Source of the DNA: Candidatus Daviesbacteria bacterium
Lineage (GTDB): Bacteria; Patescibacteriota; Microgenomatia; Daviesbacterales; UBA10151
DNA: 59,445 nucleotides
Direction: 5' to 3'
NCBI GenBank assembly: GCA_030699125.1
Contig: JAUYKM010000005.1
Coordinates: 1-59,445, forward strand
The translations under genes and the position numbers were made by a program. Below, piece by piece: positions 1,828 to 36,068 of this stretch. Every line of letters begins with the position of its first letter. Position 1 is the stretch's first letter. The notes beneath the pieces are model-generated. The model made no database searches. It worked only from the letters and a program-made list of their open reading frames with translations, and was not told where the DNA came from.

Positions 1828-2666
1828 ATACTCTTAGCAACTACATTACGAAATATTTTCATTCTATGCATTATGTAGCCATATCTGTTCTGACTGTTGT
1901 GGCAGTTGTTGAAAGTATCGGCCGAGGATTTCCTATGAATGTGGTTGTTGCAGTTCTTACGGCATCCGTTCTTGATGTTGCAATGAACAAGTTCTTGGCT
2001 TCGCCAATGAAACGATTATGGCTAAAAAGTGTACCTGCGATACCCCTATCGGCAATCATTACTGGTTTGATAGTCGGAACGGTGTCGGTGAATGCGCCCG
2101 TTCTGAGTACTTTTATCGCAACTGTTCTTGCAATACTTTCTAAGTTTATCATCAGGTGGAAAGGTTCGCATATCTTCAATCCGGCTGTGTTCGGTGTGGT
2201 TACTGTGCAGGTTTTAAATCCTGCTGCTCATGGTGCCGCTGTCCATGGCTCGTCACAGATAATGGAGGGTTTTGGGCCCGGTGGCCTTGCTGTAAGTATG
2301 TGGTTAGTGCCGCTTTTACTATTTGCTTCCTTTCGAGCAAGGAAACTGTGGGTTTCAATACCATTTCTGATCGCATCAGCATTGCTTTTCTACTTCACAG
2401 GGCTTGTTAATCTAACTTCATTGAGTACCCAAGGTATATTTAAATTCCTTGAAGTCCTGCCCTATTATTTTGCATTCATTATAGTTTCAGAGCCCAAGAC
2501 TTCCCCTTGGGTAAAAAAAGAGCAGATTATATTCGGAATCGGTGTTGCAATTTTTTCCGTTTTACCTCTCCTTCTTTTTGGTTTCTATTCCCATGTCACA
2601 GCACTTGTAACACTGCTTCTTGGGAACTTAATCTATGCGACTTATCGCCTAAAAAATAGGGACTAA
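1824..2666 (+). CDS. RnfD/NqrB-family-like integral membrane protein (stand-alone)
   Basis: Multi-TM; SAIITGLIV, KFIIRWKGSHIFNPAVFG and FIIVSEPKTSP match RnfD/NqrB motifs. Confidence 0.75.
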   Translation: MNTLSNYITKYFHSMHYVAISVLTVVAVVESIGRGFPMNVVVAVLTASVLDVAMNKFLASPMKRLWLKSVPAIPLSAIITGLIVGTVSVNAPVLSTFIATVLAILSKFIIRWKGSHIFNPAVFGVVTVQVLNPAAHGAAVHGSSQIMEGFGPGGLAVSMWLVPLLLFASFRARKLWVSIPFLIASALLFYFTGLVNLTSLSTQGIFKFLEVLPYYFAFIIVSEPKTSPWVKKEQIIFGIGVAIFSVLPLLLFGFYSHVTALVTLLLGNLIYATYRLKNRD

Positions 2667-2809
2667 CCCGCCGGAACGAGCCTCGTCTATTCAGACGGAG
2701 TGAAAGTACCTTACTGTTAGGAAGCGAATGTTGACATCAGATTTGATGATTCATCTTGGCTACAGGGATCGAAACCCTATTCCCTCTGGTTCAACTCGAG
2801 CCGGAGGTT
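2665..2809. ncRNA. Candidate structured ncRNA (6S-like closing stem)
   Basis: GC-rich intergenic segment whose ends pair (aacccgccggaacgag with ctcgagccggaggtt); internal hairpins gtct-attc-agac, catca-gatt-tgatg, aggg..ccct. Confidence 0.3.
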
Positions 2810-2831
2810 CTATTTATGATAATATTTGATT

Positions 2832-3161
2832 ATGGCTTGGAAAGTTTTATTCTTTCAAACAACAAGAGGTGACTCTCCTGTGGAGGATTTTATTAAAGAG
2901 CAGGACGAAGCTACATATGCTAAAATTTTGCAGTCCATGAGACTTCTTGCTAATAATGGACCCTTTTTGAAACCTCCTTACATCAAAAAGATACAAGACA
3001 AGTTATACGAATTAAGAATATCCGGAAAAGTAGCAATAAGAATATTTTATACAATTACCAATCATGAGTACTATTTGCTACATGCTTTTAAGAAGAAAAG
3101 TCAAAAAACGCCCTTTAAAGAAATTAAGGTAGCCCTTGACAGAATGATAGAATTAGTATAG
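2832..3161 (+). CDS. Type II toxin, RelE/HigB (phage Gp49-like) family
   Basis: SPVEDFI, KLYELRI, RIFY, LLHAFKKKSQKTP..EI..A; lies upstream of an HTH gene. Confidence 0.88.
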   Translation: MAWKVLFFQTTRGDSPVEDFIKEQDEATYAKILQSMRLLANNGPFLKPPYIKKIQDKLYELRISGKVAIRIFYTITNHEYYLLHAFKKKSQKTPFKEIKVALDRMIELV

Positions 3162-3173
3162 CATATATGCTAT

Positions 3174-3479
3174 ATGATTAAACCTAAAGACAGAAAACAC
3201 CGAGACTTCAACGATTTCTTAAATGAGTCTCTTAAAAATCCTAAAATAAAAGCTGAATATGATAAGCTGCAGCCTGAATTTGCTATGATCCAAGCGGTTA
3301 TAGATGCGAGAGTTAAAAAGGGCGTAACGCAGAAAGAACTGGCTCAAAAAATTGGGACGAAACAATCTGTTATCTCAAGACTTGAGTCTGGAAAAGCTAA
3401 CCCATCGGTTGCCTTTCTTAAAAAACTAGCTCAAGCTCTAAACTCTCATCTGGAAATTAGATTTACCAATTTTAAATAA
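3174..3479 (+). CDS. XRE-family HTH antitoxin (HigA-like)
   Basis: TQKELAQKIGTKQSVISRLESGKANPS HTH; toxin-antitoxin gene order. Confidence 0.88.
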   Translation: MIKPKDRKHRDFNDFLNESLKNPKIKAEYDKLQPEFAMIQAVIDARVKKGVTQKELAQKIGTKQSVISRLESGKANPSVAFLKKLAQALNSHLEIRFTNFK

Positions 3480-3678
3480 GTCTCTTGTACTTTACTATAC
3501 ATCTTTTAGTCTAAATGTATAAGCAAATTCTGAGCTTAGACTATCAGATAGGAATAATTCGAAGAAACTCTTTAGTCTGTTTAAGGTACTAGCCGGATCA
3601 CTGATGCTGAGTGTTCGTTCTAATCCTATTATGCTTGACAAAGTCAACATCGTTCCAGGTTCACAGATTGAATTTTCT

Positions 3679-5475
3679 TTAGCCCTCTAAATTAATTTTT
3701 CTAATCCTAATATTTTTAGGAGTGACTTCAACTAATTCTGTTTCATCAATATATTCCATGGCATTTTCTAAGCTCATAACCTTGGGTGTATTAAAATGCT
3801 CTGATGTTCCCTCACCGGAGGATCTGTGATTGGTTTGCTGTTTCTCTTTGCAAACATTAATTCTAATATCATCCCCCCGGGAATTTTGTCCAATAACTTG
3901 TCCTTTATAAACTGAGGAGCCGGGACCTATGAATAAGTTTCCTCTATCTTGAGCCCCAATTAAGGCATACAGTTTGGTGATTCCTGCTTCGTGAACAACC
4001 AGTGAGCCGTTATTTCTTTGGAATCTGGTGCCTGAATCCAGCCGGTATTCAAAAAATGATGAGCTGATTATCCCCAGTCCTTTAGTATCTGTAACAAACT
4101 GAGACCTGTAGCCGAAAAACTCCTTGGTGGCAATTAAAAACTCCAAAAATACCACTCCGTTTCCTGCTTCGCCATTAGGTGAGTCTGTTACCATATCCAA
4201 AAGCTCTCCATGTCTTAATCCCATTTTCTGCATGATGGATCCGGAATACTCCTGCGGTACCTCGATGGCCACTTTCTCATATGGAGTTAAAGTTTTTCCG
4301 TTTTCAATTTTTTCAATAACTTGAGGCTTACCTACCTGAAATTCATATCCTTCTCTTCGCATTCTCTCAATCAAGATAGCCAGATGCAACTCCCCCCGCC
4401 CTGAGACAATCCATTCCGATCCTTCAGGTTCCACCTTAAGCGCTACATCAGCTTCCTGAGCCTTCAATAATCTTTCCTGAATCTGCCTGGCTGTTTTAAA
4501 CTCTCCCTCTATGCCGGTCAAAGGAGAGGTGTTTACTCCAAACTTCATTTTTACTGTTGAAGGTTCTATATCCAAAAGGGGCAAGGATACAGGATTTAGG
4601 GGATCGGATATAGTCTCACCTATCGTGATCTCGGGAATACCGGATAAGGCTACAATATCTCCGGATCCTGCTTGTTCAATGTCAATTCTGTCCAGTCCCT
4701 CAAATCCCATAAGGGAAGTTAGTTTAAATTTTTTAATTGAACCGTCTCTTTTGATATGGGCAACTTCCTGACCCTTTTTTACAGTACCATTATAAATTCT
4801 GCCGGTGGCAATTCTGCCTTTAAAATTATCATAATTTGTATTGGTGATTAAAATTTGTAAAGGTTTGTCAAGCTCCATTAAGGGGGATGGGATATGCTTT
4901 AAAACAGCATCAAAAAGGGGGGAAATATCATCCATTTTAGATAAATCAGCATCCAGTCCTGCTTTACCCTGTTTTCCTGAAGAATAGATGGTGGGGAAAA
5001 AAGAGGTTTCCTCATCTGCTCCCAGCTCCAAAAACAAATCAAAAGTCTTATTTAAAACATGTGAGATTCTAACACCAGGTTTATCTATTTTATTGATCAC
5101 TACAATCACTTTATGGCCCATCTCCAGCGCTTTTTTTAAAACAAACCTGGTTTGCGGCATGGGACCTTCTTTGGCATCAATTAAAAGGAGGGCTCCATCA
5201 GCCATTTTTAAAACGCGTTCCACCTCTCCCCCAAAATCAGCATGTCCCGGAGTATCAATAATATTAATCTTGGTATTTTTCCAATTGATAGAAGCATTTT
5301 TGGAAAAAATAGTAATTCCCCTTTCCCTTTCCAGATCATTGGAGTCCATAATAAGGTCGCCTTTGTCCTGAATTTCTTTGGAAATGTGAGTTTGGGATTG
5401 GCGAAGCAGGGCATCTACCAGAGTAGTTTTGCCGTGATCAACATGAGCTATAATTGCCACATTACGAATGTCCAT
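3679..5475 (-). CDS. typA: Translational GTPase TypA/BipA
   Basis: IRNVAIIAHVDHGKTTLVD, ERERGITI, DTPGHADFGGEVER, GRGELHLAILIE; C-terminal VTPKNIRIRK. Confidence 0.97.
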   Translation of the reverse strand: MDIRNVAIIAHVDHGKTTLVDALLRQSQTHISKEIQDKGDLIMDSNDLERERGITIFSKNASINWKNTKINIIDTPGHADFGGEVERVLKMADGALLLIDAKEGPMPQTRFVLKKALEMGHKVIVVINKIDKPGVRISHVLNKTFDLFLELGADEETSFFPTIYSSGKQGKAGLDADLSKMDDISPLFDAVLKHIPSPLMELDKPLQILITNTNYDNFKGRIATGRIYNGTVKKGQEVAHIKRDGSIKKFKLTSLMGFEGLDRIDIEQAGSGDIVALSGIPEITIGETISDPLNPVSLPLLDIEPSTVKMKFGVNTSPLTGIEGEFKTARQIQERLLKAQEADVALKVEPEGSEWIVSGRGELHLAILIERMRREGYEFQVGKPQVIEKIENGKTLTPYEKVAIEVPQEYSGSIMQKMGLRHGELLDMVTDSPNGEAGNGVVFLEFLIATKEFFGYRSQFVTDTKGLGIISSSFFEYRLDSGTRFQRNNGSLVVHEAGITKLYALIGAQDRGNLFIGPGSSVYKGQVIGQNSRGDDIRINVCKEKQQTNHRSSGEGTSEHFNTPKVMSLENAMEYIDETELVEVTPKNIRIRKINLEG

Positions 5476-5489
5476 ATGTATCTGCCATC

Positions 5490-5514
5490 AAAAAAACCGC
5501 CTCTTTTGGCGGTT
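5490..5514 (-). terminator. Intrinsic terminator-like hairpin between the typA promoter and typA start; could also terminate the topoisomerase IB gene
   Basis: Minus strand aaccgcc-aaaaga-ggcggtt followed by a T run. Confidence 0.65.
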
Positions 5515-5529
5515 CAAAAGCAGATGCTA

Positions 5530-5558
5530 AGTATACCATTTTGGATCCTACTTGGCAA
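5530..5558 (-). promoter_or_regulatory. sigma70-type promoter for typA
   Basis: TTGCCA-17 bp-TATACT on the minus strand. Confidence 0.55.
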
Positions 5559-5570
5559 ATGTTTAGGATT

Positions 5571-6629
5571 TTATATAGCGGGTTGGTATGTTTGGAGGAG
5601 TTTAATTAAAGCATATTCATCCCAAGCAAGACCTTTTTGTTTAGATTTGGATTTAGCATAATATGCAAAATGGGGAACCAAGATATTTTTCTGATAAGTT
5701 TCAAAAATAGCTGGATGGATATAATAATTTTTACAAACAGCAGTAGTATTGGCTAAATGCTGAGAAACTTTTTTAACAGTTTGGAGAATATTTTGCTTTA
5801 GCGTTTTTTTATCCTTAGGCTCTCCCAGTTTATAAAAATTAGTGGCAGAGATATTAGTTCCTCCCCAGGTTCTGAAATCCTTGGCTGAAAAATCATCAGA
5901 GGTGATATCTTTTAGGAATAAATTAACATCAGAGGAGTCCACCACATGTCTTTCTCCCTCCGGATCAACAAATTGAAAAAGTTCATATCCCGGCAATTCA
6001 ATACACTTTTTTATAGTTTGAGAGATTTTTTTATTGGATACTTCAATTAAATGATTAACTCCACTTTTACCCCTGAATTCAAATAAAACCTGAGAGCCCC
6101 TGACTTTAACATGTTTATTTCGAAGAGTTGTTAGGCCAAAAGAGTTATTTTCCCTGCTATATTCTTCATTACCAATTCTTATAAAGGTATGTTCCAAAAG
6201 CCACACCACTGCGGATAGAATTTTTCTCTTATCAATATCTCTGCTGTCTAAATAATATGCAACTCTTTGTCTGATTTTAGGTAGAGACAAACCAAAGGAA
6301 ACTACTCTGGAAAATTTATTTTGTCCCCTTAGAAGAGTCCAATCATGATGATAAATATATTGTTTTCTATTTCTTTCATCTACTCCTGTTGCTTGAATAT
6401 GACCAGAAGGACTGGGGCAGATCCAAACATTATCCCATGCTGGAGGGATAACTAGCTTCTCAATTCTTTTTAGAGTTCGCTTATCCTTAATGGTTTTGCC
6501 TCCTAAGTCATAATATTTGAAAGTTTTTCCCAAATTTTGGCGTATAAATCCTGGACTAGAATCAGAGACAAAGTGTAAAGCTTGTTTTTTAAGTTGTTTT
6601 TGTAAGATAGGGTCAGTTTGAAGATTCAT
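5571..6629 (-). CDS. Bacterial DNA topoisomerase IB (poxvirus-like)
   Basis: IPPAWDNVWICP, GRKQY-like NRKQYIYH, IRIGNEEY, FGLTTLRNKH, FRGKSG, SAKDFRTW, LANTTAVCKNYYIHP (catalytic R/K/R/N/Y). Confidence 0.93.
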   Translation of the reverse strand: MNLQTDPILQKQLKKQALHFVSDSSPGFIRQNLGKTFKYYDLGGKTIKDKRTLKRIEKLVIPPAWDNVWICPSPSGHIQATGVDERNRKQYIYHHDWTLLRGQNKFSRVVSFGLSLPKIRQRVAYYLDSRDIDKRKILSAVVWLLEHTFIRIGNEEYSRENNSFGLTTLRNKHVKVRGSQVLFEFRGKSGVNHLIEVSNKKISQTIKKCIELPGYELFQFVDPEGERHVVDSSDVNLFLKDITSDDFSAKDFRTWGGTNISATNFYKLGEPKDKKTLKQNILQTVKKVSQHLANTTAVCKNYYIHPAIFETYQKNILVPHFAYYAKSKSKQKGLAWDEYALIKLLQTYQPAI

Positions 6630-24674: not shown

Positions 24675-24898
24675 AAAAGTATTAGAAAACAATTGGGTAG
24701 TTGAACTCTAAGAGTTAAACTGTCAAAAATAAATGAAGTGTAATTTCTTGCAGTCGAAATAACGTAATCATTAAGTTTTCTAAATGTTGATTATATACTA
24801 CTTACCTTAAATTAGAAACAAGCTGGATAGTAAATGCCAGTTTGATGAGTTCAAACCTCCCATCAGGGGTAGTAAAAGTTGAGGCTAAAAGGTACTAG

Positions 24899-24971
24899 GG
24901 TGGCTGACGGGAATTGAACCCGCAACATTCAGATCCACAATCTGACGCTCTGCCATTGAGCTACAGCCACC
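24899..24971 (-). tRNA. tRNA-His(GUG)
   Basis: G-1, GTGGCTG/CAGCCAC, anticodon arm TCAGA-TT-GTG-GA-TCTGA, T-loop TTCAATT, C discriminator. Confidence 0.95.
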
Positions 24972-25034: not shown

Positions 25035-25136
25035 AAAAATCCGACCTTGCGGCCGGATTCTTAGAGAACCTGTTACTGTTAGCTTTTGATGGCCAACGAA
25101 ACTTTCAATCTTGCGATATCAGTTTTAACAGGTTCT
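25035..25136 (-). ncRNA. Candidate small RNA / attenuator (three-way junction plus terminator)
   Basis: 11-bp closing stem agaacctgtta/taacaggttct, inner hairpins atc-GCAA-gat and gttggc-catcaaaa-gctaac, then aatccggcc-GCAA-ggtcggatt followed by a T run. Confidence 0.55.
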
Positions 25137-25139
25137 GTA

Positions 25140-25168
25140 ACTATATAATGATAAACAACTTCTGTCAA
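25140..25168 (-). promoter_or_regulatory. Near-consensus sigma70 promoter driving the candidate sRNA
   Basis: TTGACA-17 bp-TATAGT. Confidence 0.7.
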
Positions 25169-25170
25169 CT

Positions 25171-25205
25171 GGGATTAAATGGATCATATCCCATCAAAAC
25201 ACCAA
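25171..25205 (+). repeat. Array repeat A, copy 1 (partial)
   Basis: gggattaaatggatcatatcccatcaaaacaccaa; lacks ataaatgccg relative to copies 2 and 3. Confidence 0.8.
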
Positions 25206-25266
25206 ACTTGCAAACTAAACATATCAGTGCTAAAATTGCCATATAAATCTGCTTAGGAATAAATTT

Positions 25267-25626
25267 ATGCCAGAAAAAGCTAGAGTATTTATTGCTGAAG
25301 ATGAAAAAGATTGGCAACAAAGAATTGAACGTAATCTTAAAAGAAGTGAGCATGAAGTAGTTTTAACTGCCGAGACATTGGCAGAAGCCCTTAGAGCGCT
25401 TGATCGATTTGAGGAACTCCAGGTACAGGTAGCTACACTCGATGGAAATTTAAGAGGAAAATATTCTTATGGATTAGATGGTCGTGAGGTATCGCTAGCA
25501 ATTAGAAGTCGTTTCCCAAATGTAAAAATAGTTGGTTTGTCTAGTGACAAATTTCGCGGAGAAGCTGATATAGAGTTAAATAAGGCTGACACATTCAAAC
25601 TAGGAGAAGTTGTTGCAAATTTGTAA
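25267..25626 (+). CDS. Stand-alone response-regulator receiver (CheY-like)
   Basis: VFIAEDE, VATLDGNL (phospho-Asp), IVGLSS, NK. Confidence 0.82.
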   Translation: MPEKARVFIAEDEKDWQQRIERNLKRSEHEVVLTAETLAEALRALDRFEELQVQVATLDGNLRGKYSYGLDGREVSLAIRSRFPNVKIVGLSSDKFRGEADIELNKADTFKLGEVVANL

Positions 25627-25721
25627 AATCTTTAATTACGTTGAGGATCTGGAAGCTCACCTTGTATTCTTATTGCATCAATAAAAGTAGTAAATTTCTG
25701 TCAGTACACGTACTGGCAATT

Positions 25722-25803
25722 TTAGAAGGGTAAGATTTCTGAAGATTTAACTTTTAATGCAACAGATAATCCTTTCAAGATTTCAAAAGATGGGTTTTCT
25801 TCA
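25722..25803 (-). pseudogene. XRE-HTH C-terminal remnant B1
   Basis: EENPSFEILKGLSVALKVKSSEILPF*; no start codon, in-frame stop immediately upstream. Confidence 0.7.
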
Positions 25804-26055
25804 TCCTAAAATCTTTTTTATGGCTTCATTGGGAATTCCAACTCGTCTTAATTGAGTTCTATAGCTTGCTGAGGTGTTAGGATCATAGTTTCCTTTCTTT
25901 AAAATTACTATGACAAAAGGCCTGGTACCTTTTGGAACTTTTTGTGGAGTAGGATGGACGTATTTTAAATGACTGGTGGCATTTTGAGGTTCTTCAGTAA
26001 ACTTTTGATCTTTTAATAATTTACAAAGTTCTTCAGAAGTAAATGATCGAGGCAT
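25801..26055 (-). CDS. HicA-like mRNA interferase toxin
   Basis: 84 aa; ELCKLLKDQKF, TSHLKYVHP (His motif); paired with a HicB-like gene. Confidence 0.7.
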   Translation of the reverse strand: MPRSFTSEELCKLLKDQKFTEEPQNATSHLKYVHPTPQKVPKGTRPFVIVILKKGNYDPNTSASYRTQLRRVGIPNEAIKKILG

Positions 26056-26061
26056 TTTAGA

Positions 26062-26385
26062 TTAATGAAAATAAGTTTGATGCAGCTTAGGAGACACAAA
26101 GATATTAAATTTTATTAACTCCTCTAAACGGTTTTTTGGTTTCTGAACTACCGGTTCCTGAATAAAAGGTGGAATATACCATACTTTATGTTGAAGTTTT
26201 TTAGGAATGTCAAAAAAGGCATACATCAGATCATTTACATTATAGATTAATCCTATTAGATCACCGGCCTCCGTAAAGACATCTAGATTTTTTATATTAG
26301 CCAACCAGATTCCGGTTTTAGGATTTCTGGATACTTTGACATCTAATTCCTCTGGCAGTTGTTCAAGAATTTTTAAACTTTTCAT
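26062..26385 (-). CDS. HicB-like antitoxin
   Basis: WLANIKNLDVFTEAGDL...NVND partial RNase-H-like HicB N-domain; adjacent to hicA-like gene. Confidence 0.65.
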   Translation of the reverse strand: MKSLKILEQLPEELDVKVSRNPKTGIWLANIKNLDVFTEAGDLIGLIYNVNDLMYAFFDIPKKLQHKVWYIPPFIQEPVVQKPKNRLEELIKFNIFVSPKLHQTYFH

Positions 26386-26431
26386 AAGTTAAATATAACA
26401 TACTTTTTCTAAAAATGTGTAAGAAAATTTA

Positions 26432-26486
26432 GTGTGTTTAAGGGATAAATGCCGATTAAATGGATCATATCCCATCAACACACCAA
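26432..26486 (+). repeat. Array repeat A, copy 2
   Basis: gtgtgtt-taa-gggata ... tatccc-atc-aacacac-caa hairpin; 45-bp core is 44/45 identical to copy 3. Confidence 0.9.
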
Positions 26487-26558
26487 AATTTGACTTTATA
26501 CTGGCATTGGTGGATTTTATAGAGCTTTTTATCGTAAATCTAAATTACTCTTGCCGAT

Positions 26559-27263
26559 CTAGTAAAGCCTTAAGTTGGTAATCTCTACCGTATCACTAAA
26601 AACTTCTACTTCATCTATAGAACTTTTCCATGGGATTACTACATCCTTAGCTATTGTAATGGCATGTGGTTCATAAACTACCTCTGGCTGCCATGCTGCA
26701 TATACAACATCTGGTTCATCTGGATTTATATTAATTTCTGTTACTACTTTATGCTTTGTAATTATAAATGCAAATTTTTCTGGTAAATGTAAAATAGGTG
26801 GTTCATTTCTTCTAATTTCTATTAAAGGTGTATTTCCTTCAGCCCTGCGGGCTAAAATTCCATTTCCACCAAAGAGCCAAGGTTGGTCAAATGGTTCTTT
26901 AAGTGGTTCTCCATCTGGTTGGTATCTAAAACCATAGGTAAACTCAGGAAATCCTAAGTCACGAGCAGTATAAGCGCTATAAGTTAAGTGGGTAAGTGGA
27001 TATTTCCCAGGATTACTTTTTATTAGGGAAGCAACTTCCCGAAAAGTAGCTATTCCTTCACTAATCCATGACATAAATCTGTCACCTCCTTCACGACCTC
27101 TAAATCCATTAAAAAACCTTACAACTGGTCTTATTATCGGCGGTAAACCAGCAATACGCTCAGAATGTTTTGTCCATTTCTGGCTTAACTCCTCTATTTT
27201 AGATTGAAGGTCTTGGTGGTGCAGATATTTTTCTTTAATTGCTTGGTCAACCTCGGCCGTCAT
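26559..27263 (-). CDS. Hypothetical protein (cassette cargo)
   Basis: 234-aa ORF with no recognisable motif. Confidence 0.65.
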   Translation of the reverse strand: MTAEVDQAIKEKYLHHQDLQSKIEELSQKWTKHSERIAGLPPIIRPVVRFFNGFRGREGGDRFMSWISEGIATFREVASLIKSNPGKYPLTHLTYSAYTARDLGFPEFTYGFRYQPDGEPLKEPFDQPWLFGGNGILARRAEGNTPLIEIRRNEPPILHLPEKFAFIITKHKVVTEININPDEPDVVYAAWQPEVVYEPHAITIAKDVVIPWKSSIDEVEVFSDTVEITNLRLY

Positions 27264-27299
27264 ATCTTAAGGGGAATTATATCATCTATGAAACCACAA

Positions 27300-27408
27300 T
27301 TAGAAAGGTAACATCTTTGAAGATTTAACTTTTAATGCTACAGATAATCCTTTTAAGATTTCAAAAGATGGATTTTCTTCTTCTCTTTCAATTCTAACAT
27401 TATAGCTA
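27300..27408 (-). pseudogene. XRE-HTH C-terminal remnant B2
   Basis: NSYNVRIEREEENPSFEILKGLSVALKVKSSKMLPF*; 59/62 nt identical to B1 over the core. Confidence 0.75.
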
Positions 27409-27437
27409 TTGACAAATTGTACAACTCTATGTACAAT
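27409..27437 (+). promoter_or_regulatory. TA promoter with paired TGTACA operators
   Basis: TTGACA-17 bp-TACAAT; TGTACA at 27418 and 27430, 12 bp apart, as in YefM-type operators. Confidence 0.75.
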
Positions 27438-27445
27438 AAGTTTAT

Positions 27446-27700
27446 ATGAGTAATTTAATTTCCATATCTGATGCTAGAGCAAAACTTCCTGATCTTGTTG
27501 ATAAAGTTGATAAAAATATGGATAGAGTAGTAATTACAGTAAATGGTCAGCCTAAAGCAACCCTTATAAGTGCAGAAGAGCTGGAATCACTGGAAGAAAC
27601 TGCTGAAATTCTATCAATCCCCAATATTAAAAAAGATCTTGCAAAAAGTAGAAAACAAATTAAAAAAGGTGAGTTTGTTCTTCTTTCAAACCTTAAATAA
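27446..27700 (+). CDS. Phd/YefM-family antitoxin
   Basis: ISISDARAKL, VVITVNGQPKATLIS.EELESLEET. Confidence 0.92.
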   Translation: MSNLISISDARAKLPDLVDKVDKNMDRVVITVNGQPKATLISAEELESLEETAEILSIPNIKKDLAKSRKQIKKGEFVLLSNLK

Positions 27701-27948
27701 TGCAAGTTCTTCTTTCAAAGGATGCTCAAAAACAATTCAAGAAACTTCCTGAAAATGAGCAATTAAAAGTAAAAAGAAAATTACTAACACTTGAACAAGA
27801 TCCACAAGCTGGCAAAAAGCTGGAAGGAGAGTTAAGTGACTTTCGTTCTCTCAAAGTTTGGCCATATCGTATTTTGTATGAGATAAATACTCTAGAAAAA
27901 AGAATTGAAATACACAAAATTGTTCATAGACAAAGTGCATATAAATAA
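27700..27948 (+). CDS. RelE/ParE-family toxin
   Basis: GKKLEGEL..FRSLKVWPYRILYEI, IVHRQSAYK; translationally coupled to the antitoxin. Confidence 0.92.
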   Translation: MQVLLSKDAQKQFKKLPENEQLKVKRKLLTLEQDPQAGKKLEGELSDFRSLKVWPYRILYEINTLEKRIEIHKIVHRQSAYK

Positions 27949-27965
27949 CTATCACTTGAGGTGAA

Positions 27966-28019
27966 TGTGTTCGGGGGATAAATGCCGATTAAATGGACCA
28001 TATCCCATCAACACACCAA
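27966..28019 (+). repeat. Array repeat A, copy 3
   Basis: tgtgtt-cgg-gggataaatgccgattaaatggaccatatcccatcaacacaccaa. Confidence 0.9.
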
Positions 28020-28047
28020 GTAACTAATTTGACACAGAATATCAAAG

Positions 28048-29325
28048 GTGATACTGTTCATTTACAATATGGCACTTGGCGAAACTCTAAATCGTGCCCG
28101 CGAAAGATTAATTACTCCTACTGATGTTCAACTGGTGCAAAGATTTCTAGATAGTGGCATAAAAAACGTCGTAACAGTTCCCTGTTCCATCACCCAAACA
28201 ATTGATCCGATCTGGTCAGCTAAGGCAAGCGCGGGCGAGATGAATTATTGGAAAATGGTTAATGAACACTCCTTAGTGGGAGTTACTAGTGGAGTTTATT
28301 TCGGGACAGGAGAGTTAGCACTTGCCCATATGCAAAATTCTGGTATCGGAAATGCCTTAGATGGATTTGTTTCCTACGCAGGGGTATACAAAATCCCAAC
28401 CTTAACAATTGTTACCTGGAGAGGAAATGATGCCAAAGATGATTCTGAACCCCACCAGGAAATAGGCAGAAGAACAAACAGGTTAACAAGAGATGTAGTG
28501 GATAGAAAGAGTATTTTTGGTGAGAGAAACGGAAGAGGAATTCTTAGACAGGTTGACGAAGCAGTTTTGCGGGCCAGGGAGGGAAACCCATGTATTCTTA
28601 GACTTTCTCCTGATGCCTTCAAGAAAACTTATCCTATGACACTTCCGGAGATAGTAGAGACAGATTTTCTGCATATTGATCATAGAATAGAGGAGTTAAG
28701 TGCAGGAAAGGGAGATACTATGGATAGTGTATTTAAAAGAGAAAGAATTTCCAGGGCAGAAGCAGTTCAAGGAATAACCAAGGATGAAGAGAGGGCCGTA
28801 ATCTTAAGTAATGGCTTTACAGCCCGAGAAGCTCAAGAGAAGGCAGACAGATTAGGTAACTTCTATAACGCTGGTTACATGGGTGGGGGCTTAGCAATTG
28901 GATGGGGTATGGCTAAGAGTAATCCCGATATAAAGGTAGTGGTAGTTGATGGAGATCAGAATGCAGAAATGGGTAAGATGACAGAAATTTTGGCTAATGA
29001 TTATCCTGGTAATTTAGAGTGGTATATTTTGGACAATGGGTTTGGTACATCAGTAGGTGTATCTGAGAGTGTGCCTTTGCCTTGGTGGTACTATGATTTG
29101 GCGCATGTTATTAGAACTGTTCCAGATAAACCTGGTGAATTTAAATCTCCCAGAGTTGGTGGAAGAGGAAGTTATTTTGATTTACAAGAAGCTCAGGAGA
29201 TGGCGGATAGGATTGGTCCCCTTCCTGTCCATGCTAACAGATTTAGGCACTGGGTAGAGATGAAAAGTCAAGAGAATCACCAACAAAAGAGATGGAACGA
29301 ATTCCTGGAACGAGTCTCACGATAA
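28048..29325 (+). CDS. Fused TPP-dependent decarboxylase (phosphonopyruvate/sulfopyruvate decarboxylase-like); true start may be 28069
   Basis: VTVPCS, NEHSLVG, MQNSGIGN, WRG...DSEPHQEIG, GYMGG, VVDGDQN...ILDNG. Confidence 0.82.
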   Translation: MILFIYNMALGETLNRARERLITPTDVQLVQRFLDSGIKNVVTVPCSITQTIDPIWSAKASAGEMNYWKMVNEHSLVGVTSGVYFGTGELALAHMQNSGIGNALDGFVSYAGVYKIPTLTIVTWRGNDAKDDSEPHQEIGRRTNRLTRDVVDRKSIFGERNGRGILRQVDEAVLRAREGNPCILRLSPDAFKKTYPMTLPEIVETDFLHIDHRIEELSAGKGDTMDSVFKRERISRAEAVQGITKDEERAVILSNGFTAREAQEKADRLGNFYNAGYMGGGLAIGWGMAKSNPDIKVVVVDGDQNAEMGKMTEILANDYPGNLEWYILDNGFGTSVGVSESVPLPWWYYDLAHVIRTVPDKPGEFKSPRVGGRGSYFDLQEAQEMADRIGPLPVHANRFRHWVEMKSQENHQQKRWNEFLERVSR

Positions 29326-29361
29326 ACCGCTAGGGTAAAATCTTTATGCCTCAACTTTGGC

Positions 29362-29435
29362 AAAAAAAAGGGACCAGGAGCTTGTTAGGCTGTAATGCAA
29401 AAAATGCAAAACAAAAAAACAAGACTACTGGTCCC
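29362..29435 (-). terminator. Large-loop terminator-like hairpin downstream of the adhesin-like gene
   Basis: gggaccag..cttgtt / aacaag..ctggtccc followed by T8 on the minus strand. Confidence 0.55.
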
Positions 29436-29496
29436 TACTAAACAATCTTAACGATTAACGCTTTGAGAGGCTATAGCCAATAGTTCACTAGTTCCT

Positions 29497-31557
29497 TTAG
29501 TAAGGAGTGGTGAATGGACAGAGGGTGGGGCTGGGTGTAAAAAGCACCGGGACCGATTCGTTTTCGTTGATGGTATTAACCGTCAAACGCAAAGAACACA
29601 AATCCGGAGTGCCTCCGTTGAACCAGCTTGTTAAAGCCGCGTCAGCAAGTGCGATGACCTCATCGACTGTAAGACCGCTGTTGGGGTCACCTGCATTCAT
29701 GTAAGTGGCCGAACCCATTCCCGCAAACTTGCGGACATTGAGCTTTAGAGCCAACAGCTGAGCACTCAAGAGCTCATGGCAATCTCCGCTGGAATCAGCT
29801 GGAGGCAGAAATTCGCTTTCGCGACAGTCTGCTCCGTTGCCGGTTGAACACAGGTTTCCGATCTCGCCGGGTAAGGTTTGGGAGGGCTCATCGAGACTTC
29901 CATCAGCTGCAAATACAAGATCTGCATCTTCTGGAGAGTTAACGATTAAATGCCGTCCAATTGCTTGTCCAATTAAGATTGGATTAGCTGCCAGACCGTT
30001 GTAGGTCGGATCCTTTGGTGCTTCAGGAGCTGTAGCTTCTGTTCCAGAATGAGTTTTCCAGTAACCCCAGGTTAACCCACCTTCGAAAGGAATCAGGCAA
30101 ATGTTGCCGAAGTTCTTTCCGGTGACTACCTCAGGCGGCTGTGGAGAACCATCTCCTGCGTGAAGCGGGAAAGTCTCCCGATGTCCACCCGGTGCTTCAG
30201 GGTTTAAGGCTGAGCAGAGCGTATTCTGCGGTGCAGTCTGAACCCAATCAGCATCAGGAAGAACTTCACACACCAGATAGGTGCCCGGGATCAAACCAGT
30301 GAAGGCGTACTCGCCGGACGCATTAGTGTAAGTCGTGGTAATCAGCACGCCGTTCTGGTAGAGCTCGATCCTCCAGCCTGGGATAGAAACCTCATCCCTT
30401 GATGCTCCGTCACGGTTGCTGTCATAGAACTTGCGTCCTCTGATCTCGTTCAGCTGGATGTTGCCGAACCGTAGATCCTGAGCGGATGATACTTTGCCAC
30501 TGCTCTTGGTGAGAGTGACAATGTAGTATCCATCTTTTGGATCTACTGTAGTTCCTGCAGGCTGTACCAAAGGCACATCTGCATCTGTTGGATCGGTGTT
30601 CAGCCAGTTGGCTTGGAGTACCTCGTTGACAGTGTAGGTCCCTTCCTGTCGTTCACAGAAAGAGAACTGCCCAGTCGCTGAGCTCACATCCGTGGCCAAG
30701 ACAGTGCCCGTGCCGTTTGAGCCGGAACGAAGCTGAATGGTCCAACCGGACAAACCTTCTTCGCCCGTGTCGAGATCGCCGTCAGCATTGTGATCATGGT
30801 ACTTTATTCCCACGATACAGCCAAGCTGAAGTCTTTCCCGGACTTTGAAGTTGTCGGTCTTGGTGTGACCTTGCTGGAATCCAGCCAGGTTGGCTGCCCG
30901 ACAGGCCGCTACTGTGGGACTGTTACCAGGGCCTGGTACACAGGAGAGATTTCCACCGTTTCCGGTGTAGTCATCCTCACTGGTAATCCAGGTTTTGTAA
31001 ACACCCCCGTTGTTGGGCGTGTCGTCGAACTTGTCTCCGCCGCCTGAAACCGCTCTGTTGAGCTGGATGGTTTTAGCCGATCCATGTATCCCAACATCGT
31101 GGTCGTGACCTGTCTTGTGCTCACAGCTTCCAGTGACAACTACCCCTGAGATCCGACCGTTGCTGGCAGTGAAACGCCGGCATTGGGCCGCATCGTTTGA
31201 GAGTAGTACTTCCAGGTTGTTATCAGAGCCTGGTGGAGCTGTAACCATGAAGACGTACGTTCCGTCAGCCAATCCGTCGCCGCCAGGGCCATTGGGTCCT
31301 CCATTTAGGAAGACACAATCCTTGGCATTGGCTGCCGCCGGTAAACCAACTGCTGCCAGTTGTGCATTACAGTCAGTAAAACTCGGATTAGGTCCGGGTT
31401 CGGGGTAAACGTTGCCGTTTACCTGCTCACCATGAGGGTATGATGTCCAGATTGCTCCGTTAAGAGCATGAGCAGAAACCCCATTAAGGGTAATCTGAGT
31501 AAACAACACACCAGTTAGGAGAACTAGAAATGCTGTTGCCAATATTCTGCTTCGCAC
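29497..31557 (-). CDS. Secreted SdrD-B/Cna-B repeat surface protein, GC-richer than flanks
   Basis: Signal peptide; two G.KY.D.N.DG...EEGLSGWTIQL / GTYTVNEV modules; many Cys; SD ggagga before GTG. Confidence 0.8.
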   Translation of the reverse strand: MRSRILATAFLVLLTGVLFTQITLNGVSAHALNGAIWTSYPHGEQVNGNVYPEPGPNPSFTDCNAQLAAVGLPAAANAKDCVFLNGGPNGPGGDGLADGTYVFMVTAPPGSDNNLEVLLSNDAAQCRRFTASNGRISGVVVTGSCEHKTGHDHDVGIHGSAKTIQLNRAVSGGGDKFDDTPNNGGVYKTWITSEDDYTGNGGNLSCVPGPGNSPTVAACRAANLAGFQQGHTKTDNFKVRERLQLGCIVGIKYHDHNADGDLDTGEEGLSGWTIQLRSGSNGTGTVLATDVSSATGQFSFCERQEGTYTVNEVLQANWLNTDPTDADVPLVQPAGTTVDPKDGYYIVTLTKSSGKVSSAQDLRFGNIQLNEIRGRKFYDSNRDGASRDEVSIPGWRIELYQNGVLITTTYTNASGEYAFTGLIPGTYLVCEVLPDADWVQTAPQNTLCSALNPEAPGGHRETFPLHAGDGSPQPPEVVTGKNFGNICLIPFEGGLTWGYWKTHSGTEATAPEAPKDPTYNGLAANPILIGQAIGRHLIVNSPEDADLVFAADGSLDEPSQTLPGEIGNLCSTGNGADCRESEFLPPADSSGDCHELLSAQLLALKLNVRKFAGMGSATYMNAGDPNSGLTVDEVIALADAALTSWFNGGTPDLCSLRLTVNTINENESVPVLFTPSPTLCPFTTPY

Positions 31558-31653
31558 TGTTTTCCTCCAATTACAAAACTATACTCTACTGGAATTTAAT
31601 GAGCTTATTCAGAAAGCTAACAATCTGAAAAGCATACATCCCCCCTTTCTTAA

Positions 31654-31685
31654 AGGCTATATTAAATTGTTAAGGTACCTCCTTT
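31654..31685 (-). promoter_or_regulatory. Shared leader motif, copy 1
   Basis: 27/32 identical to 56764-56794. Confidence 0.6.
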
Positions 31686-31842
31686 CCGCTCTTTAGCGTA
31701 AAAGTTAGGATCTCTCTTATTACCCAGAAAGGATAAATAGGCCGCATTTGACCTTATCCTTTTATGGTTTTAAGAGAACCTATAAATTGGTTGGGGTTGA
31801 AAAAACAAGCCGCTTTTGGCTTGAAACCCTAATCCGAATCCG

Positions 31843-31871
31843 ATAGTAATAAATCCTTAGTTAAATGTCAA
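31843..31871 (-). promoter_or_regulatory. sigma70 promoter giving a ~280-nt leader
   Basis: TTGACA-17 bp-TACTAT. Confidence 0.65.
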
Positions 31872-31986
31872 GTAATGCTGATCATAACTGATAAATATTT
31901 CATGTAAATTTTGGGGACTTAGAATAATAAACTACAGGTATGACTTAATATGGCAAACTATAACAATATCTGTTATTTAAAAAAAG

Positions 31987-33708
31987 CTAGTTTGAAAAAG
32001 GAAGTAGATCCCAAAGTTCTATTGGGTTAAGGATGGCAGATAATATGTTTGGTTCCAGGGTTCCAAAGTCTAAAATATTTTCACCGCTGATTAATTCTTT
32101 TTGAATTGTTTTAACTTTATAGTTTTCCTTTTCCAGACTAAATTCAAAAGTATAACCCGGCAACAAGTATCTTGCCTCCAAATCCCCTGATTGTCCAGCT
32201 TCAGATAAAATTATTTTTTGAACTGTTTCACCTGTCGGGCCTTTCACACTAAGTAAATATTCTCCTTTGTGAACTCTTTTCCACTTAAGAAGGCTGATGA
32301 TTTTTAATATAACCGGAGATTTTACTTCTGTGGTGAATTCAACTGATCCGCTTTCAAACTGTTCTGAGCCGAAGAATAGATTTAGTACAAGATTGAATGA
32401 GCCCTTCCCAGGCGCATGCAAATCCAGCTGAAAAGTGTATTCCTGACCAGGTTCTATCTTAGTATCTGGTGGCACCTCAACTTCTTTAATTCCTAAATCA
32501 TTTCCGCCTTTTAGAGGAATAAGCTTTACTGTTTCACTATCATTCCAGATTGACTGACCGATATTTTTAAGAGTTAAATTAATTTGGTAGCTTTCACCAG
32601 ATACAATAGTATTGTAGATTTCTCCCTTGATAAGTTGAGCTCTGTGCTCTTGCACAGGTTTTCCAGCTACTTTTGGGAGATTCTTGATAGTATGATATTG
32701 CGGATAAAAAGTGTTTTGAGTACCATTGCCATTAAATTTCTTGAAGGAAAAATGATCAAATGGCCCCTCCTGATAATCTAGCAGAAATGGTGTGATGGCC
32801 ACTATCCTTTGGGATGACCAAGCAATCTCAAATGCTGATTTATAATACTGGGCTACCTTTTCAGCTGAAGGGAAGGATGAGTATGTTTGGAGTCCTTCTG
32901 CATGTTGCCAACCAGTTTCCGTAATAAAAACAGGCAAATTTTTAGTTACTCCCATCTCTCGCAGTATCTGCAGTTCCCAGTACCAGGTTCTAATTGTGCC
33001 TCTGCCATTATCATCAGGTGAACCAGTAAAATTCGGATTGGGATAGGAGTGAGAGACCCAGCCATCCAGTTTATTAAAGATACCTGGTACTTCTTCCTCC
33101 ATCTGTCTCATAAATTTAACTTGATCTTCATATAAAGGAGGCTTTGAGGGCGCTGAGGCATCAAAACCTCCGTTGAGTACAAAATAGTCTCGATTTTTTG
33201 ATTTTAGCTCTGTGATAACCTTATCTAATACTTTTGCATACATTTTAGCGTCAACAAAATTTCCCCATTCTTTACCATGATTAGGCTCATTATAGACAAT
33301 AACATATCTGTTCTTGGTAGGCCAGTTAAGGCTATTCAAAAAGTCTGCCCAGGCTTTTTCCTCTCCCTCATAAGGCCTTTCCCATCCGTCAGCTGACGGA
33401 TCATTAAGCGGCTTGGTGGCCAGCCTAACAATGGGAATTAGGTGTTTACTTCTAAGTTCATTAAAAAACGCCTGCCATTTATTATGATCTCTGTCTTTAG
33501 ATTCAATTAAGAAAGTTACATAGCCCCAATCTCCATTGGTATTTGCCAATGATGCAGCAGGGGAAGATTCATCAGGAGTAGCATGAATAATATGAATGCC
33601 AAATTTATTATTGGGAACAGATAAAGGATCATAAACTGCTTCCACAATCTTTGTTGTAACTAATAAATACAAGGCTGCAAGAAGTAATAAGGTGGCAATA
33701 ATCCGCAT
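31987..33708 (-). CDS. Secreted clan GH-A glycoside hydrolase-like protein with C-terminal Ig-like domains
   Basis: Signal peptide; IVYNEPNH (acid/base), SHSYP, PVFITETGW (nucleophile); LKNIGQSIW Ig domain. Confidence 0.78.
   Translation of the reverse strand: MRIIATLLLLAALYLLVTTKIVEAVYDPLSVPNNKFGIHIIHATPDESSPAASLANTNGDWGYVTFLIESKDRDHNKWQAFFNELRSKHLIPIVRLATKPLNDPSADGWERPYEGEEKAWADFLNSLNWPTKNRYVIVYNEPNHGKEWGNFVDAKMYAKVLDKVITELKSKNRDYFVLNGGFDASAPSKPPLYEDQVKFMRQMEEEVPGIFNKLDGWVSHSYPNPNFTGSPDDNGRGTIRTWYWELQILREMGVTKNLPVFITETGWQHAEGLQTYSSFPSAEKVAQYYKSAFEIAWSSQRIVAITPFLLDYQEGPFDHFSFKKFNGNGTQNTFYPQYHTIKNLPKVAGKPVQEHRAQLIKGEIYNTIVSGESYQINLTLKNIGQSIWNDSETVKLIPLKGGNDLGIKEVEVPPDTKIEPGQEYTFQLDLHAPGKGSFNLVLNLFFGSEQFESGSVEFTTEVKSPVILKIISLLKWKRVHKGEYLLSVKGPTGETVQKIILSEAGQSGDLEARYLLPGYTFEFSLEKENYKVKTIQKELISGENILDFGTLEPNILSAILNPIELWDLLPFSN
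33384..33401. repeat. 18-bp perfect palindrome within coding sequence
   Basis: atccgtcagctgacggat; same family as tccgccagctggcgga at 52913. Confidence 0.6.
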
Positions 33709-33803: not shown

Positions 33804-36068
33804 ATGGAAAACAAAGTGGTTTTACAAATCCAAACTCCCAGAACTTCTGAGGAAACTCCGGAAGCAATGTCTCAATTTTTGTCAAGTTTAACTAACCTCA
33901 AAAAAATCATTCTTGTGTATTTCAGAAGGGGAATTCCCATTTCATTAGAAATAGCTGCATTTGATCAAACCATTCGTTTTTTTATAGTTATTCCGAAAGA
34001 ATATCAAACATTTGTGGAAAGTCAGCTTCTGTCACAATATCCCAAAGCAATTATTACCCAAGTTAAGGATTACCTACCTTCGTGTTTAGCGCCAATTAGT
34101 AATATTAGAGTAGCTAGATTGAGGCTAAGAAATGATTATATCTATCCTCTAAAAACTTATACAGAATTTAAAGATGTTGATCCCCTGTCTTCACTTTTGG
34201 GAATTTTATCCAAACTGGGAAATGAGGAGAAAGTAGTCATCCAATTTTTGCTTTATCCGATCTCAAACTCCTGGCAAAATAGAGGAAAAGGAGCTTTTGA
34301 AACAAAATATGATGACCTAGGCAAACCTATCCATTCTCAATACGGCAGTTATGGTAAAAAGAGCATCATGGATAAAATCAGTCAGGATGGTTTTAAAGTC
34401 GGAGTAAGGTTGCTAGTCAATAGCTCCAGTAAGGGCCTTTTAAGTCTCATTGCCGCATCATTTGGCAGTTTCAATAATCCGGAAGGCAACAGCCTAATAC
34501 TTTCCCGAACCTATTTCTATCAAAAGGATAGACTTCTTAAGGCTATTTTGAAGCGTACAAAATCTGTTATTCCATCCCGACAAGTCCTAAATTTATCTGA
34601 AGTTGCCACCATGTTTCATCTACCGAACAATAAATTGTCAACCATTTCCAATATTTCCTGGATAAAATCTATCCTTTCACAACCACCTGATAACTTACCG
34701 ATTGCTCAAAATTTAACTGATCAGGAAAAAACAGAGATTAATTTTTTTGCCAGAACCGAATTTAAGAACAAACCGCAAATTTTTGGCATCAAAAAAATTG
34801 ACCGAAGAAGGCATATTTATATTATTGGAAAAACCGGTACTGGTAAGTCTACTTTGATTGCCAATATGGCTATCTCCGATATCAGAAATGGCCAAGGCTG
34901 TGCCATTATTGATCCGCACGGAGATTTGGCCCAACTTCTGCTTAAATACATTCCCTCATATAGGGTTAATGATGTTATTTATCTTGATCCATCTGATACC
35001 AGTCATCCTTTTCACCTTAACCCCCTGGAAATAACTGACCCGGCTCAAAAGGAACTGGTAGCATCCGGCATTGTAGCCATATTTCATAAACTTTATGCTC
35101 ACACCTGGGGTCCCAGACTGGAATATATCTTAAGAAATACCATCCTGACTCTTTTGGAAACTCCTGATCCTACCTTAGTCCAGGTCCCTTCTCTTTTAAC
35201 TGATCCCACATACAGAAGGCAGTTGGTTTCCAAATTAAATGACAGGATTTTGGCCAACTTCTGGCTTAATGAATTTGAGCAGATGCCTCCCAAGTTGAAA
35301 AGTGAGTCTATTTCACCAATCTTAAACAAAGTGGGACAGTTTATCTCATCCCCCATGATCAGAAATATTGTGGGTCATTACAAATCATCTTTTAGCTTTG
35401 AAGACGTCATGAATCAGGGTAAAATTATTATCTTAAATTTATCACAAGGCAAGATGGGTGAGGATCATGCGGCACTCTTGGGTGCCATGGCCATTACCAA
35501 GATGCAGTTGGCTGCTATGAACAGGGTTAATTTGCCGGAAGAGGAGAGACGTGATTTTTATCTTTATGTGGATGAGTTTCAAAATTTTGCTACCACCTCT
35601 TTTATTAAAATTCTTTCTGAATCCAGAAAATACCGACTCAATTTAATATTAGCCAATCAATACACTGCCCAGACTCCTGAGGATGTCCGCTCAGCTATTT
35701 TTGGCAATATCGGTACTTTGATTTCTTTTTTAGTGGGAGCTGAGGACAGTCGTTACTTAGCAAGAGAATTTGCAGAAAGATTTAAGGAAGAAGACTTACT
35801 GGCTTTGGGAAATTACCAGATGCTCCTTAAATTAACTATTGATGCTGTTACATCTTCGCCCTTCTTTGCCCAAAGTCTACCTTTACCTAACAGTATAACT
35901 CAAAATAAGGACAAGGTGATCAGAATTTCCACAGAAAGATATGGAAAAAAAGCGGATGTTAGGGAGATAAATAAACCCAAAATTTTTAGGGAAGAGGTAG
36001 AACCTTTTTCTCACGCTGCCCCTCTTAATTCTATTCCTACCTCAGGAAGTATTCTTTTCTCTAAATAG
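33804..36068 (+). CDS. Type IV coupling protein-like / HerA-DUF87 ATPase
   Basis: GKTGTGKST, IIDPHGDL, LNPLE, WGPRLEYIL, LYVDEFQNF, SESRKYRL..ANQY. Confidence 0.88.
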   Translation: MENKVVLQIQTPRTSEETPEAMSQFLSSLTNLKKIILVYFRRGIPISLEIAAFDQTIRFFIVIPKEYQTFVESQLLSQYPKAIITQVKDYLPSCLAPISNIRVARLRLRNDYIYPLKTYTEFKDVDPLSSLLGILSKLGNEEKVVIQFLLYPISNSWQNRGKGAFETKYDDLGKPIHSQYGSYGKKSIMDKISQDGFKVGVRLLVNSSSKGLLSLIAASFGSFNNPEGNSLILSRTYFYQKDRLLKAILKRTKSVIPSRQVLNLSEVATMFHLPNNKLSTISNISWIKSILSQPPDNLPIAQNLTDQEKTEINFFARTEFKNKPQIFGIKKIDRRRHIYIIGKTGTGKSTLIANMAISDIRNGQGCAIIDPHGDLAQLLLKYIPSYRVNDVIYLDPSDTSHPFHLNPLEITDPAQKELVASGIVAIFHKLYAHTWGPRLEYILRNTILTLLETPDPTLVQVPSLLTDPTYRRQLVSKLNDRILANFWLNEFEQMPPKLKSESISPILNKVGQFISSPMIRNIVGHYKSSFSFEDVMNQGKIIILNLSQGKMGEDHAALLGAMAITKMQLAAMNRVNLPEEERRDFYLYVDEFQNFATTSFIKILSESRKYRLNLILANQYTAQTPEDVRSAIFGNIGTLISFLVGAEDSRYLAREFAERFKEEDLLALGNYQMLLKLTIDAVTSSPFFAQSLPLPNSITQNKDKVIRISTERYGKKADVREINKPKIFREEVEPFSHAAPLNSIPTSGSILFSK

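Follow-up and report, generated by a model that had tools for sequence, protein, structure and literature searches.

Repeat A, a tRNA-like hairpin beside a tRNA-His gene, is very probably a junction between two IS1595-family transposon ends

What is the imperfect palindrome, here called repeat A, that bounds accessory genes beside a tRNA-His gene in the 59,445-nucleotide stretch of Daviesbacteria DNA analyzed here (the window)? A sequence-only reading took it for a hairpin ending in CCA that resembles a tRNA 3' end, and proposed either a tRNA-derived att site or a folded single-stranded DNA (ssDNA) or RNA minihelix acting as a recombination or processing signal. We found three direct copies of repeat A, at 25152/25173-25205, 26432-26486, and 27965-28019 (none expected by chance), and the genome to which the window belongs (1.13 Mb in 19 contigs) holds repeat A nowhere else. 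Copy 2 folds as that reading claimed, with a 7-bp outer stem, a 3x3 internal loop, a 6-bp inner stem, and a 20-nt core (dG of -19.4 kcal/mol and z = -4.05 on the plus strand; z = -5.64 on the minus strand). However, copy 3 is no more stable than its shuffles (z = -1.0), and copy 1 is half a repeat, consisting of the 8-mer and the 3' arm only (z = -0.63). The observation that similarity among the copies stops just past CCA was borne out, and the last shared letters are ...ACACCAA.

Repeat A is very probably the junction of two tandemly inserted IS1595-family transposons, in which the right end of one element (IRR) is followed by an 8-bp target-site duplication and then by the left end of the next element (IRL). 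A full copy consists of IRR (GGTGTGTTyAAGGGATAAATGCC), 8 bp (GATTAAAT), and IRL (GGATCATATCCCATCAACACACCAA). When they are read inward, IRL (GGATCATATCCCATCAACACACC) and IRR (GGCATTTATCCCTTRAACACAC) agree at 17 of 23 positions and are thus imperfect inverted repeats. The hairpin exists because two such ends sit 8 bp apart, and the junction itself would have no RNA or host function. The window contains three elements, E1, E2, and E3, arranged head to tail at one target directly upstream of the -35 box of the sRNA/tRNA-His promoter (Table 1), and the inserted DNA amounts to about 6.8 kb relative to the empty sites of relatives.

Table 1. Features of the array, with positions counted from the first letter of the window
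Feature	Position	Strand	Remark
Weak look-alike, GGATAGTAAATGCC-22 nt-TCCCATCA	24825-24865	+	
Left arm of conserved target motif (TGTCAACTGG)	25163-25172	+	
8-bp target duplication, copy 1 (GATTAAAT)	25173-25180	+	
IRL of E1	25181-25205	+	Copy 1 of repeat A; left end only
Element E1, 1273 bp	25181-26453	+	No transposase gene
E1 cargo: receiver-domain gene	25267-25626	+	
E1 cargo: XRE remnant	25722-25805	-	
E1 cargo: HicA-like ORF	25801-26055	-	Weak
E1 cargo: 107-aa partner ORF	26062-26385	-	
IRR of E1	26432-26453	+	5' arm of repeat A copy 2
8-bp duplication, copy 2 (GATTAAAT)	26454-26461	+	
IRL of E2	26462-26486	+	3' arm of copy 2
Element E2, 1525 bp	26462-27986	+	No transposase gene
E2 cargo: 234-aa ORF	26559-27263	-	
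E2 cargo: XRE remnant	27300-27383	-	
E2 cargo: Phd/YefM	27446-27700	+	
E2 cargo: ParE	27700-27948	+	
IRR of E2	27965-27986	+	5' arm of copy 3
8-bp duplication, copy 3 (GATTAAAT)	27987-27994	+	
IRL of E3	27995-28019	+	3' arm of copy 3
Probable element E3, about 3.7 kb	27995-31743	+	No transposase gene; putative right boundary
E3 cargo: TPP-type enzyme gene	28048-29325	+	
E3 cargo: SdrD-B-like surface protein gene	29497-31557	-	
Degenerate IRR (CCCAGAAAGGATAAATAGGCC)	31723-31743	+	Place and orientation as expected
Third short XRE-like remnant	31756-31777		After degenerate IRR
Native right-flank gene, 573 aa	31987-33708	-	Adjoins empty or occupied site in relatives

The main evidence for this reading comes from relatives. 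Scans of public genomes and metagenomes with the core of the 3' arm returned nine loci, and at five of these tRNA-His lies in the same relative position. Exact and near-exact searches of 60 relatives gave no match to the repeat, and a looser scan found the 3'-arm end sequence in 12 of 96 family genomes (one of these matches is a chance match within a ribosomal protein gene). In a class-level scan of 401 genomes, the end consensus was essentially confined to this Daviesbacteria-level family. We found that the two arms usually stand apart in relatives. The 3' arm (GGATCATATCCCATCAACACACC) is the left end of a block of DNA and the 5' arm (GGTGTGTTCAAGGGATAAATGCC) is its right end, in the order IRL...IRR and 0.3 to 5.3 kb apart, as the inverted ends of single elements. 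The blocks and their flanking 8-mers are 335 bp at locus L042 (GATTATCT), 0.96 kb at L038 (the first of two blocks; GACAAAGT), 1.28 kb at L035 (GACGAAGT / GACGAAAT), 1.62 kb at L039 (TACAAAAT), and 5.33 kb at L040 (GACAAAGT), and L012 has two blocks in tandem (TGTAAACT). Junctions of the same kind, with IRR, 8 bp, and IRL, are also present in L009, L012, and L038.

The 8-mers that flank these blocks form pairs, identical in 9 of 12 cases and with one mismatch in the other 3. Nine different 8-mers occur across genomes, and the ends are conserved. At empty sites the flanks are joined by a single 8-mer. The empty sites of L073 and L081 read X-GACAAART-GGATCAAAATATAGCAA, equal to the outer flanks of the L040 element, and the empty site of genome G019 (L065) reads TGTCAACTAG-GATTAAAT-GGATCA, where the window's own 8-mer is present once. 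Since the 8-mers vary but match within a genome, and since empty sites hold a single one, we concluded that the arms are terminal inverted repeats and that the 8-mers are 8-bp target-site duplications.

The same data were first readable as an attL/attR pattern. According to that model, small integrative cassettes use the repeats as att sites and are moved by a recombinase of the tyrosine (Xer-like) or serine type whose gene lies elsewhere, as in IMEX- or integron-like systems; the complete palindrome would resemble attP, attL and attR would be the half sites, and the crossover core would be the 8-mer. The fixed target, the fixed orientation, and the tandem arrays agree with it, as do cassettes without an enzyme of their own and three tyrosine recombinase genes elsewhere in the genome. 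However, the supposed core is what varies and the arms are what stays constant, which fits target duplication and not a shared overlap. In addition, there is no recombinase gene in or beside any locus examined, and the end sequence, present in no more than 12 of the 96 family genomes, is too restricted to be a universal dif-like site. An IS1595 DDE transposase is encoded by relatives whose ends are of the same type, and 8 bp is the hallmark duplication length of that family (PMC8101967). We dropped the attP/attL/attR tyrosine-recombinase model once the 8-mers proved variable and an IS1595 transposase was found inside elements with the same ends, and we now regard movement by a recombinase as very unlikely. 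All three tyrosine recombinase genes of the genome are on contigs other than that of the window, which has none. One of the genome's tyrosine-recombinase genes (C4:41342-41818) is right beside tRNA-Ile(tat) (C4:41178-41249); this could be an integrative element of the classical tRNA-linked kind that has no relation to the array.

Two specific forms of site-specific recombination were also rejected. A Xer/dif (IMEX) system has one conserved site per chromosome in all relatives and an identical core in element and host. The limited occurrence among the 96 family genomes and the variation of the 8-mer between genomes speak against such a site, or a terminus, here; the GC skew of the window was uninformative for this idea. 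An integron attC site has R'' (RYYYAAC) at its 5' end and R' (GTTRRRY) at its 3' end, with crossover in R' and IntI nearby. As the sequence-only reading correctly stated, GTT lies 5' and AAC lies 3' in repeat A, the reverse of the attC order, and the breakpoint is central in the palindrome, not at its edge, so repeat A is not an attC site. The array is like integron arrays in that short cassettes, often toxin-antitoxin (TA) pairs, are split by imperfect palindromes of about 55 bp and in that growth probably takes place at a fixed platform beside a promoter. It is unlike them in that IntI is missing, the GTT/AAC boxes are reversed, the palindrome breaks at its center, half sites stand at both ends of the array, and the 8-bp duplication is of variable sequence.

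We also considered plain segmental duplication, in which one ancestral unit is copied in tandem and the copies then diverge, which would make the repeats leftover homology. The order of repeat, cargo, XRE remnant, TA module, and repeat does occur twice in the window, but neither the cargo genes nor the TA genes of one unit are related to those of the other, and the same ends bound unrelated cargo in many genomes, with target duplications and empty sites. We therefore give this explanation next to no credence.

The assignment of the ends to IS1595 rests on elements that retain a transposase gene. The element at L040 encodes a 290-aa protein that matches PF12762 (DDE_Tnp_IS1595; E = 1.1e-38) and the IS1595 zinc ribbon PF12760, and we found no second pair of ends around its transposase gene. 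The transposase-bearing L040 and G113 have the same ends as the window elements; in G113, IRL and IRR are on two contigs with a common 8-mer (GACAAAAT), and the transposase gene is split by an assembly break. A Pfam scan detected IS1595 transposases in 17 of the 96 family genomes. Compact autonomous copies at L048 (3003 bp, with ends GGTACTTATCCCATCARAACATG and target-site duplication CATCTGAT) and L051 (2257 bp, with target-site duplication TAAATCTC) have ends of the GGyAyyTATCCC... type and 8-bp duplications. The 2.26-kb L051 element (G109:C6) is inserted beside a sequence that resembles the inner part of a related end (CCCTTGACAACC), a hint that end-like targets are preferred by these transposases.

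In the IS1595 family, 8-bp duplications, a zinc finger, and a DDE domain are usual, and GG-tipped terminal inverted repeats are found in Merlin elements, the related group in eukaryotes (PMC8101967). Transporter IS (tIS) with passenger genes belong to the IS1595 and IS66 families only (bioRxiv 10.1101/2021.05.26.445724), and regulators are found among the passengers, as in ISNha5 (PMC11891212). For transporter IS of the IS1595 family, such as the ISNha5/ISNwi1 groups, the source is Siguier, Gagnevin, and Chandler 2009, as cited in PMC11891212 and PMC8101967. The elements described here share with IS1595 tIS the DDE_Tnp_IS1595 domain and zinc ribbon of their autonomous relatives, GG-tipped imperfect terminal inverted repeats of about 25 bp, an 8-bp target duplication, and passenger genes that include a transcription regulator (XRE). 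In contrast to IS1595 tIS, a transposase gene is missing from the window copies, insertion is site and orientation specific with head-to-tail build-up at one site, and in this CPR lineage the cargo comprises TA pairs, surface proteins, a receiver domain, and a diversity-generating retroelement (DGR). Judged by sequence, the array is a set of non-autonomous IS1595-family derivatives (tIS-like), and we file it so because the window copies lack a transposase gene. Like MITEs, non-autonomous derivatives here can keep only their ends, and the 335-bp L042 element fits this description; unlike MITEs, the window elements carry 1.3 to 3.7 kb of intact genes. The L042 element (G109:C14, 8725-9059) has little beyond two ends and the duplication GATTATCT, and its outer arm positions have covaried (GTGAGCT / AACTCAC).

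Mobility of these elements is suggested by their comparative anatomy. Among sequencing runs, only contig-level DNA runs of two groundwater metagenomes, and no RNA runs, contained the locus; the DNA runs showed no alternative joints or array polymorphism.

The passengers of relatives include a complete DGR, carried by the IS1595 element at L040 (G096:C9, about 2096-5836). This DGR comprises a 639-aa target protein, the variable region of which is C-terminal, a template repeat rich in Asn (about 4355-4460), and a reverse transcriptase (RT) gene (4811-5836). The RT encoded at C5:51053-52036 in the window's own genome is 47% identical to the L040 DGR RT. At L009 and L035, RT genes or fragments abut IRR.

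How, then, does the resemblance to a tRNA arise? The alignment of repeat A to the 3' end of tRNA-His, with 17 matches and one gap, was reproduced. We found that it is not specific to tRNA-His, since tRNA-Leu(taa) matches equally well. When the repeat was compared with the 3' ends of all 37 tRNAs of the genome, the best match was 17/24, and the resemblance is of a generic kind that related ends do not share. If repeat A were a tRNA-like minihelix, or a structured RNA or ssDNA signal for processing, CCA adding, or recombination that comes from a tRNA 3' half, one could point to the stable hairpin of copy 2 (z = -4 to -5.6), to the position of the array next to tRNA-His, and to the match of IRL with the tRNA-His and tRNA-Leu 3' ends at 17/24, above all 5000 shuffles. 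However, copy 1 and most homologues are half sites that are unable to fold, CCA is missing in the homologous ends of L040 and L038 (both ...CACACTTA) and of L033 (...CACACTAA), and IRR and the ends of related autonomous elements show no tRNA resemblance (background scores). No tRNA of the genome has this 3' end, and the same elements are inserted at lexA-uvrB and rpiB, away from any tRNA.

Searches with RNA models agree with this. ARAGORN and Rfam identified only the genuine tRNA-His, at 24898-24970, and Rfam at permissive thresholds added nothing but noise, such as a weak miRNA-model match on the palindrome; no Rfam family matches the repeat. The would-be T stem, GGAT/ATCC, closes a 3-nt loop. 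A tRNA or tRNA-like RNA was therefore rejected, as there is no covariance-model match and CCA is absent from three homologous ends. We also rejected an att site in a tRNA 3' end, since the loci contain no integrase and the repeats, which are located upstream of the tRNA, are on the opposite strand. The array is like tRNA-targeting integrative elements in its location beside tRNA-His and in the direct repeats that bound accessory genes. Unlike those elements, it has repeats upstream of the tRNA promoter region, on the other strand, that are not copies of any tRNA end, it has no integrase, and the same elements use tRNA-free targets. The proposed tRNA-derived att site is thus contradicted both by the tRNAs of the genome and by the tRNA-free insertions at lexA-uvrB and rpiB. 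We treat the resemblance of IRL to tRNA 3' ends as incidental; it beats 5000 shuffles, and we have no positive explanation for it.

Covariation bears directly on the folded minihelix. The alignment contained five real junctions and eight pseudo-junctions, in which IRR, 8-mer, and IRL were joined from the ends of single elements. We found that 89% of cells pair and that five pairs have double-sided changes in 13 cells, a level reached by 0 of 500 shuffles. Examples of compensatory changes are GTGAG/CTCAC in L035 and L042 and the tips in L048 and L051. The sequence-only reading had named covariation as a check of the hairpin, and compensatory changes do exist, but they come mainly from rows whose arms are 0.3 to 5.3 kb apart. 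A hairpin is impossible in those rows, and the covariation therefore reflects two ends recognized by one transposase and not selection for a fold. The arms of repeat A are normally kilobases apart as IRL...IRR and covary equally there, which, together with the Rfam result, argues against a folded ssDNA or RNA minihelix; we consider any such tRNA-derived structure extremely unlikely. The general idea of a recombination signal survives, in that the arms are transposon ends, but each specific proposal made for it fails.

With repeat A read as two abutting transposon ends, the gene content of the array can be compared with that of its relatives. The XRE repeats of E1 and E2 are the 3' remnant of an XRE gene that adjoins the transposase gene in L040 and L007, with 77 to 88% amino acid identity between the window remnants and the XRE proteins of those loci. 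The ancestors of E1 and E2 thus carried an XRE gene as well as a transposase gene, and the transposase gene has since been lost; the TA modules of E1 and E2 stand where it was. The genome has no PF12762 match and no tblastn match to the L040 transposase, and the window likewise has no PF12762 match. As the genome has no IS1595 transposase, the array can probably no longer move, and it would be a fossil kept by its TA cargo or by drift.

The right end of the array is less clear than the left. By its sequence, E3 probably ends at the degenerate IRR, the weakest boundary of the map. This IRR has two mismatches and is the joint-best non-junction match in the window, tied with 34667-34682 on the other strand, and a fourth copy of the 8-mer is not recognizable at the right end of E3. 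The protein encoded by the right-flank gene is 64% identical to the flank protein of L040. Across window positions 28000-32000 the GC content is 0.44 to 0.48, compared with about 0.37 nearby, and the E3 cargo looks foreign. Upstream of the array, the weak look-alike that had been pointed out does exist, but it is found in this genome only; it is possibly a decayed junction, with a chance of about 1e-3 of arising at random by a rough post-hoc estimate.

We found that insertions of this subgroup always have the same position and orientation within TGTCAASTRG-N8-GGATCA. This motif is present in 46 of the 96 family genomes, versus 7 matches for a reversed control pattern, at three conserved sites: in the lexA-uvrB intergenic region, upstream of rpiB, and upstream of the sRNA/tRNA-His promoter. 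In the window it lies at 25163-25186, and the window's genome has an empty copy between lexA and uvrB (C8:348915-348938). The motif overlaps promoter elements. TGTCAA is the -35 box of a leftward promoter, which in the window is the TTGACA box, on the minus strand of the left arm, of the promoter of an sRNA-like unit, and GACA resembles the -35 box of a rightward promoter. In the 24-bp motif TGTCAASTRG-GACAAAST-GGATCA, what look like two -35 boxes stand back to back, with a TGTC-N6-GACA dyad, and the sRNA/tRNA-His site is a few kilobases from dinB; the motif may be an operator, perhaps an SOS-related one.

These features suggest how the array could have grown. A cognate transposase acting in trans would make 8-bp staggered cuts at the fixed position in the motif. 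The IRL tip, GGATCA, is like the native right flank, and each insertion would restore motif, 8-mer, and GGATCA on the promoter-proximal side and so regenerate the target. Later elements would then stack at the regenerated target and leave junctions of IRR, 8 bp, and IRL. Restoration of the motif by the IRL tip would explain the tandem build-up, and selection in favor of insertions that leave both promoters intact could contribute as well. In IS30, insertion targeted to an inverted repeat yields abutted IRR-IRL junctions, (IS30)2, in which the incoming copy inserts right beside a resident end. By analogy with this IR-targeted insertion, we infer tandem stacking by target regeneration. As in (IS30)2, the ends of neighbors are separated by a spacer equal to the duplication length of the family. 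Unlike (IS30)2, the junctions belong to another family, the spacer is 8 bp instead of 2 bp, the neighbors are different elements and not two copies of one IS, and there is no evidence here that the junction is reactive.

To our knowledge, IS1595 elements have not been described as strictly specific in site and orientation, and such specificity is reminiscent of site-specific recombination. A literature search on IS1595 elements that are site specific or occur in CPR bacteria gave no relevant publication, a weak indication of novelty. With moderate confidence, we propose that these elements are an IS1595 tIS lineage, confined to the family and specific in site and orientation for the 24-bp motif, that would use end mimicry (GGATCA) to stack TA, DGR, and surface-protein cassettes into integron-like arrays that lack an integrase. 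If this is true, a naturally site-specific member would be added to IS1595/Merlin, a family for which target specificity is not known. Mobile elements are scarce in the small genomes of CPR bacteria, and a motif-targeting DDE lineage that builds ordered arrays of TA, DGR, and envelope genes would, if confirmed, be a simple route to accessory-gene hotspots. The reading of repeat A as two transposon ends side by side also removes a false lead, the tRNA-like CCA hairpin, and other "cassette-separating hairpins" in small genomes deserve the same scrutiny.

Between the insertion site and tRNA-His, the window contains the sRNA-like unit (25035-25168, minus strand), with a TTGACA-17-TATAGT promoter and a terminator. 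Rfam gave no family match for this unit. Its 5' part (…TTTTTAACAGGTTCT…) and its promoter are kept at the homologous site in at least eight family genomes, including those of L067, L073, L077, L081, L090, and L092.

In run X1, from the same groundwater metagenome, other contigs match window positions 26442-26486 with junction variants at 90 to 95% identity. These variants read …TGGTGTTCTG ahead of the inner arm. Related elements therefore occur in other members of the community.
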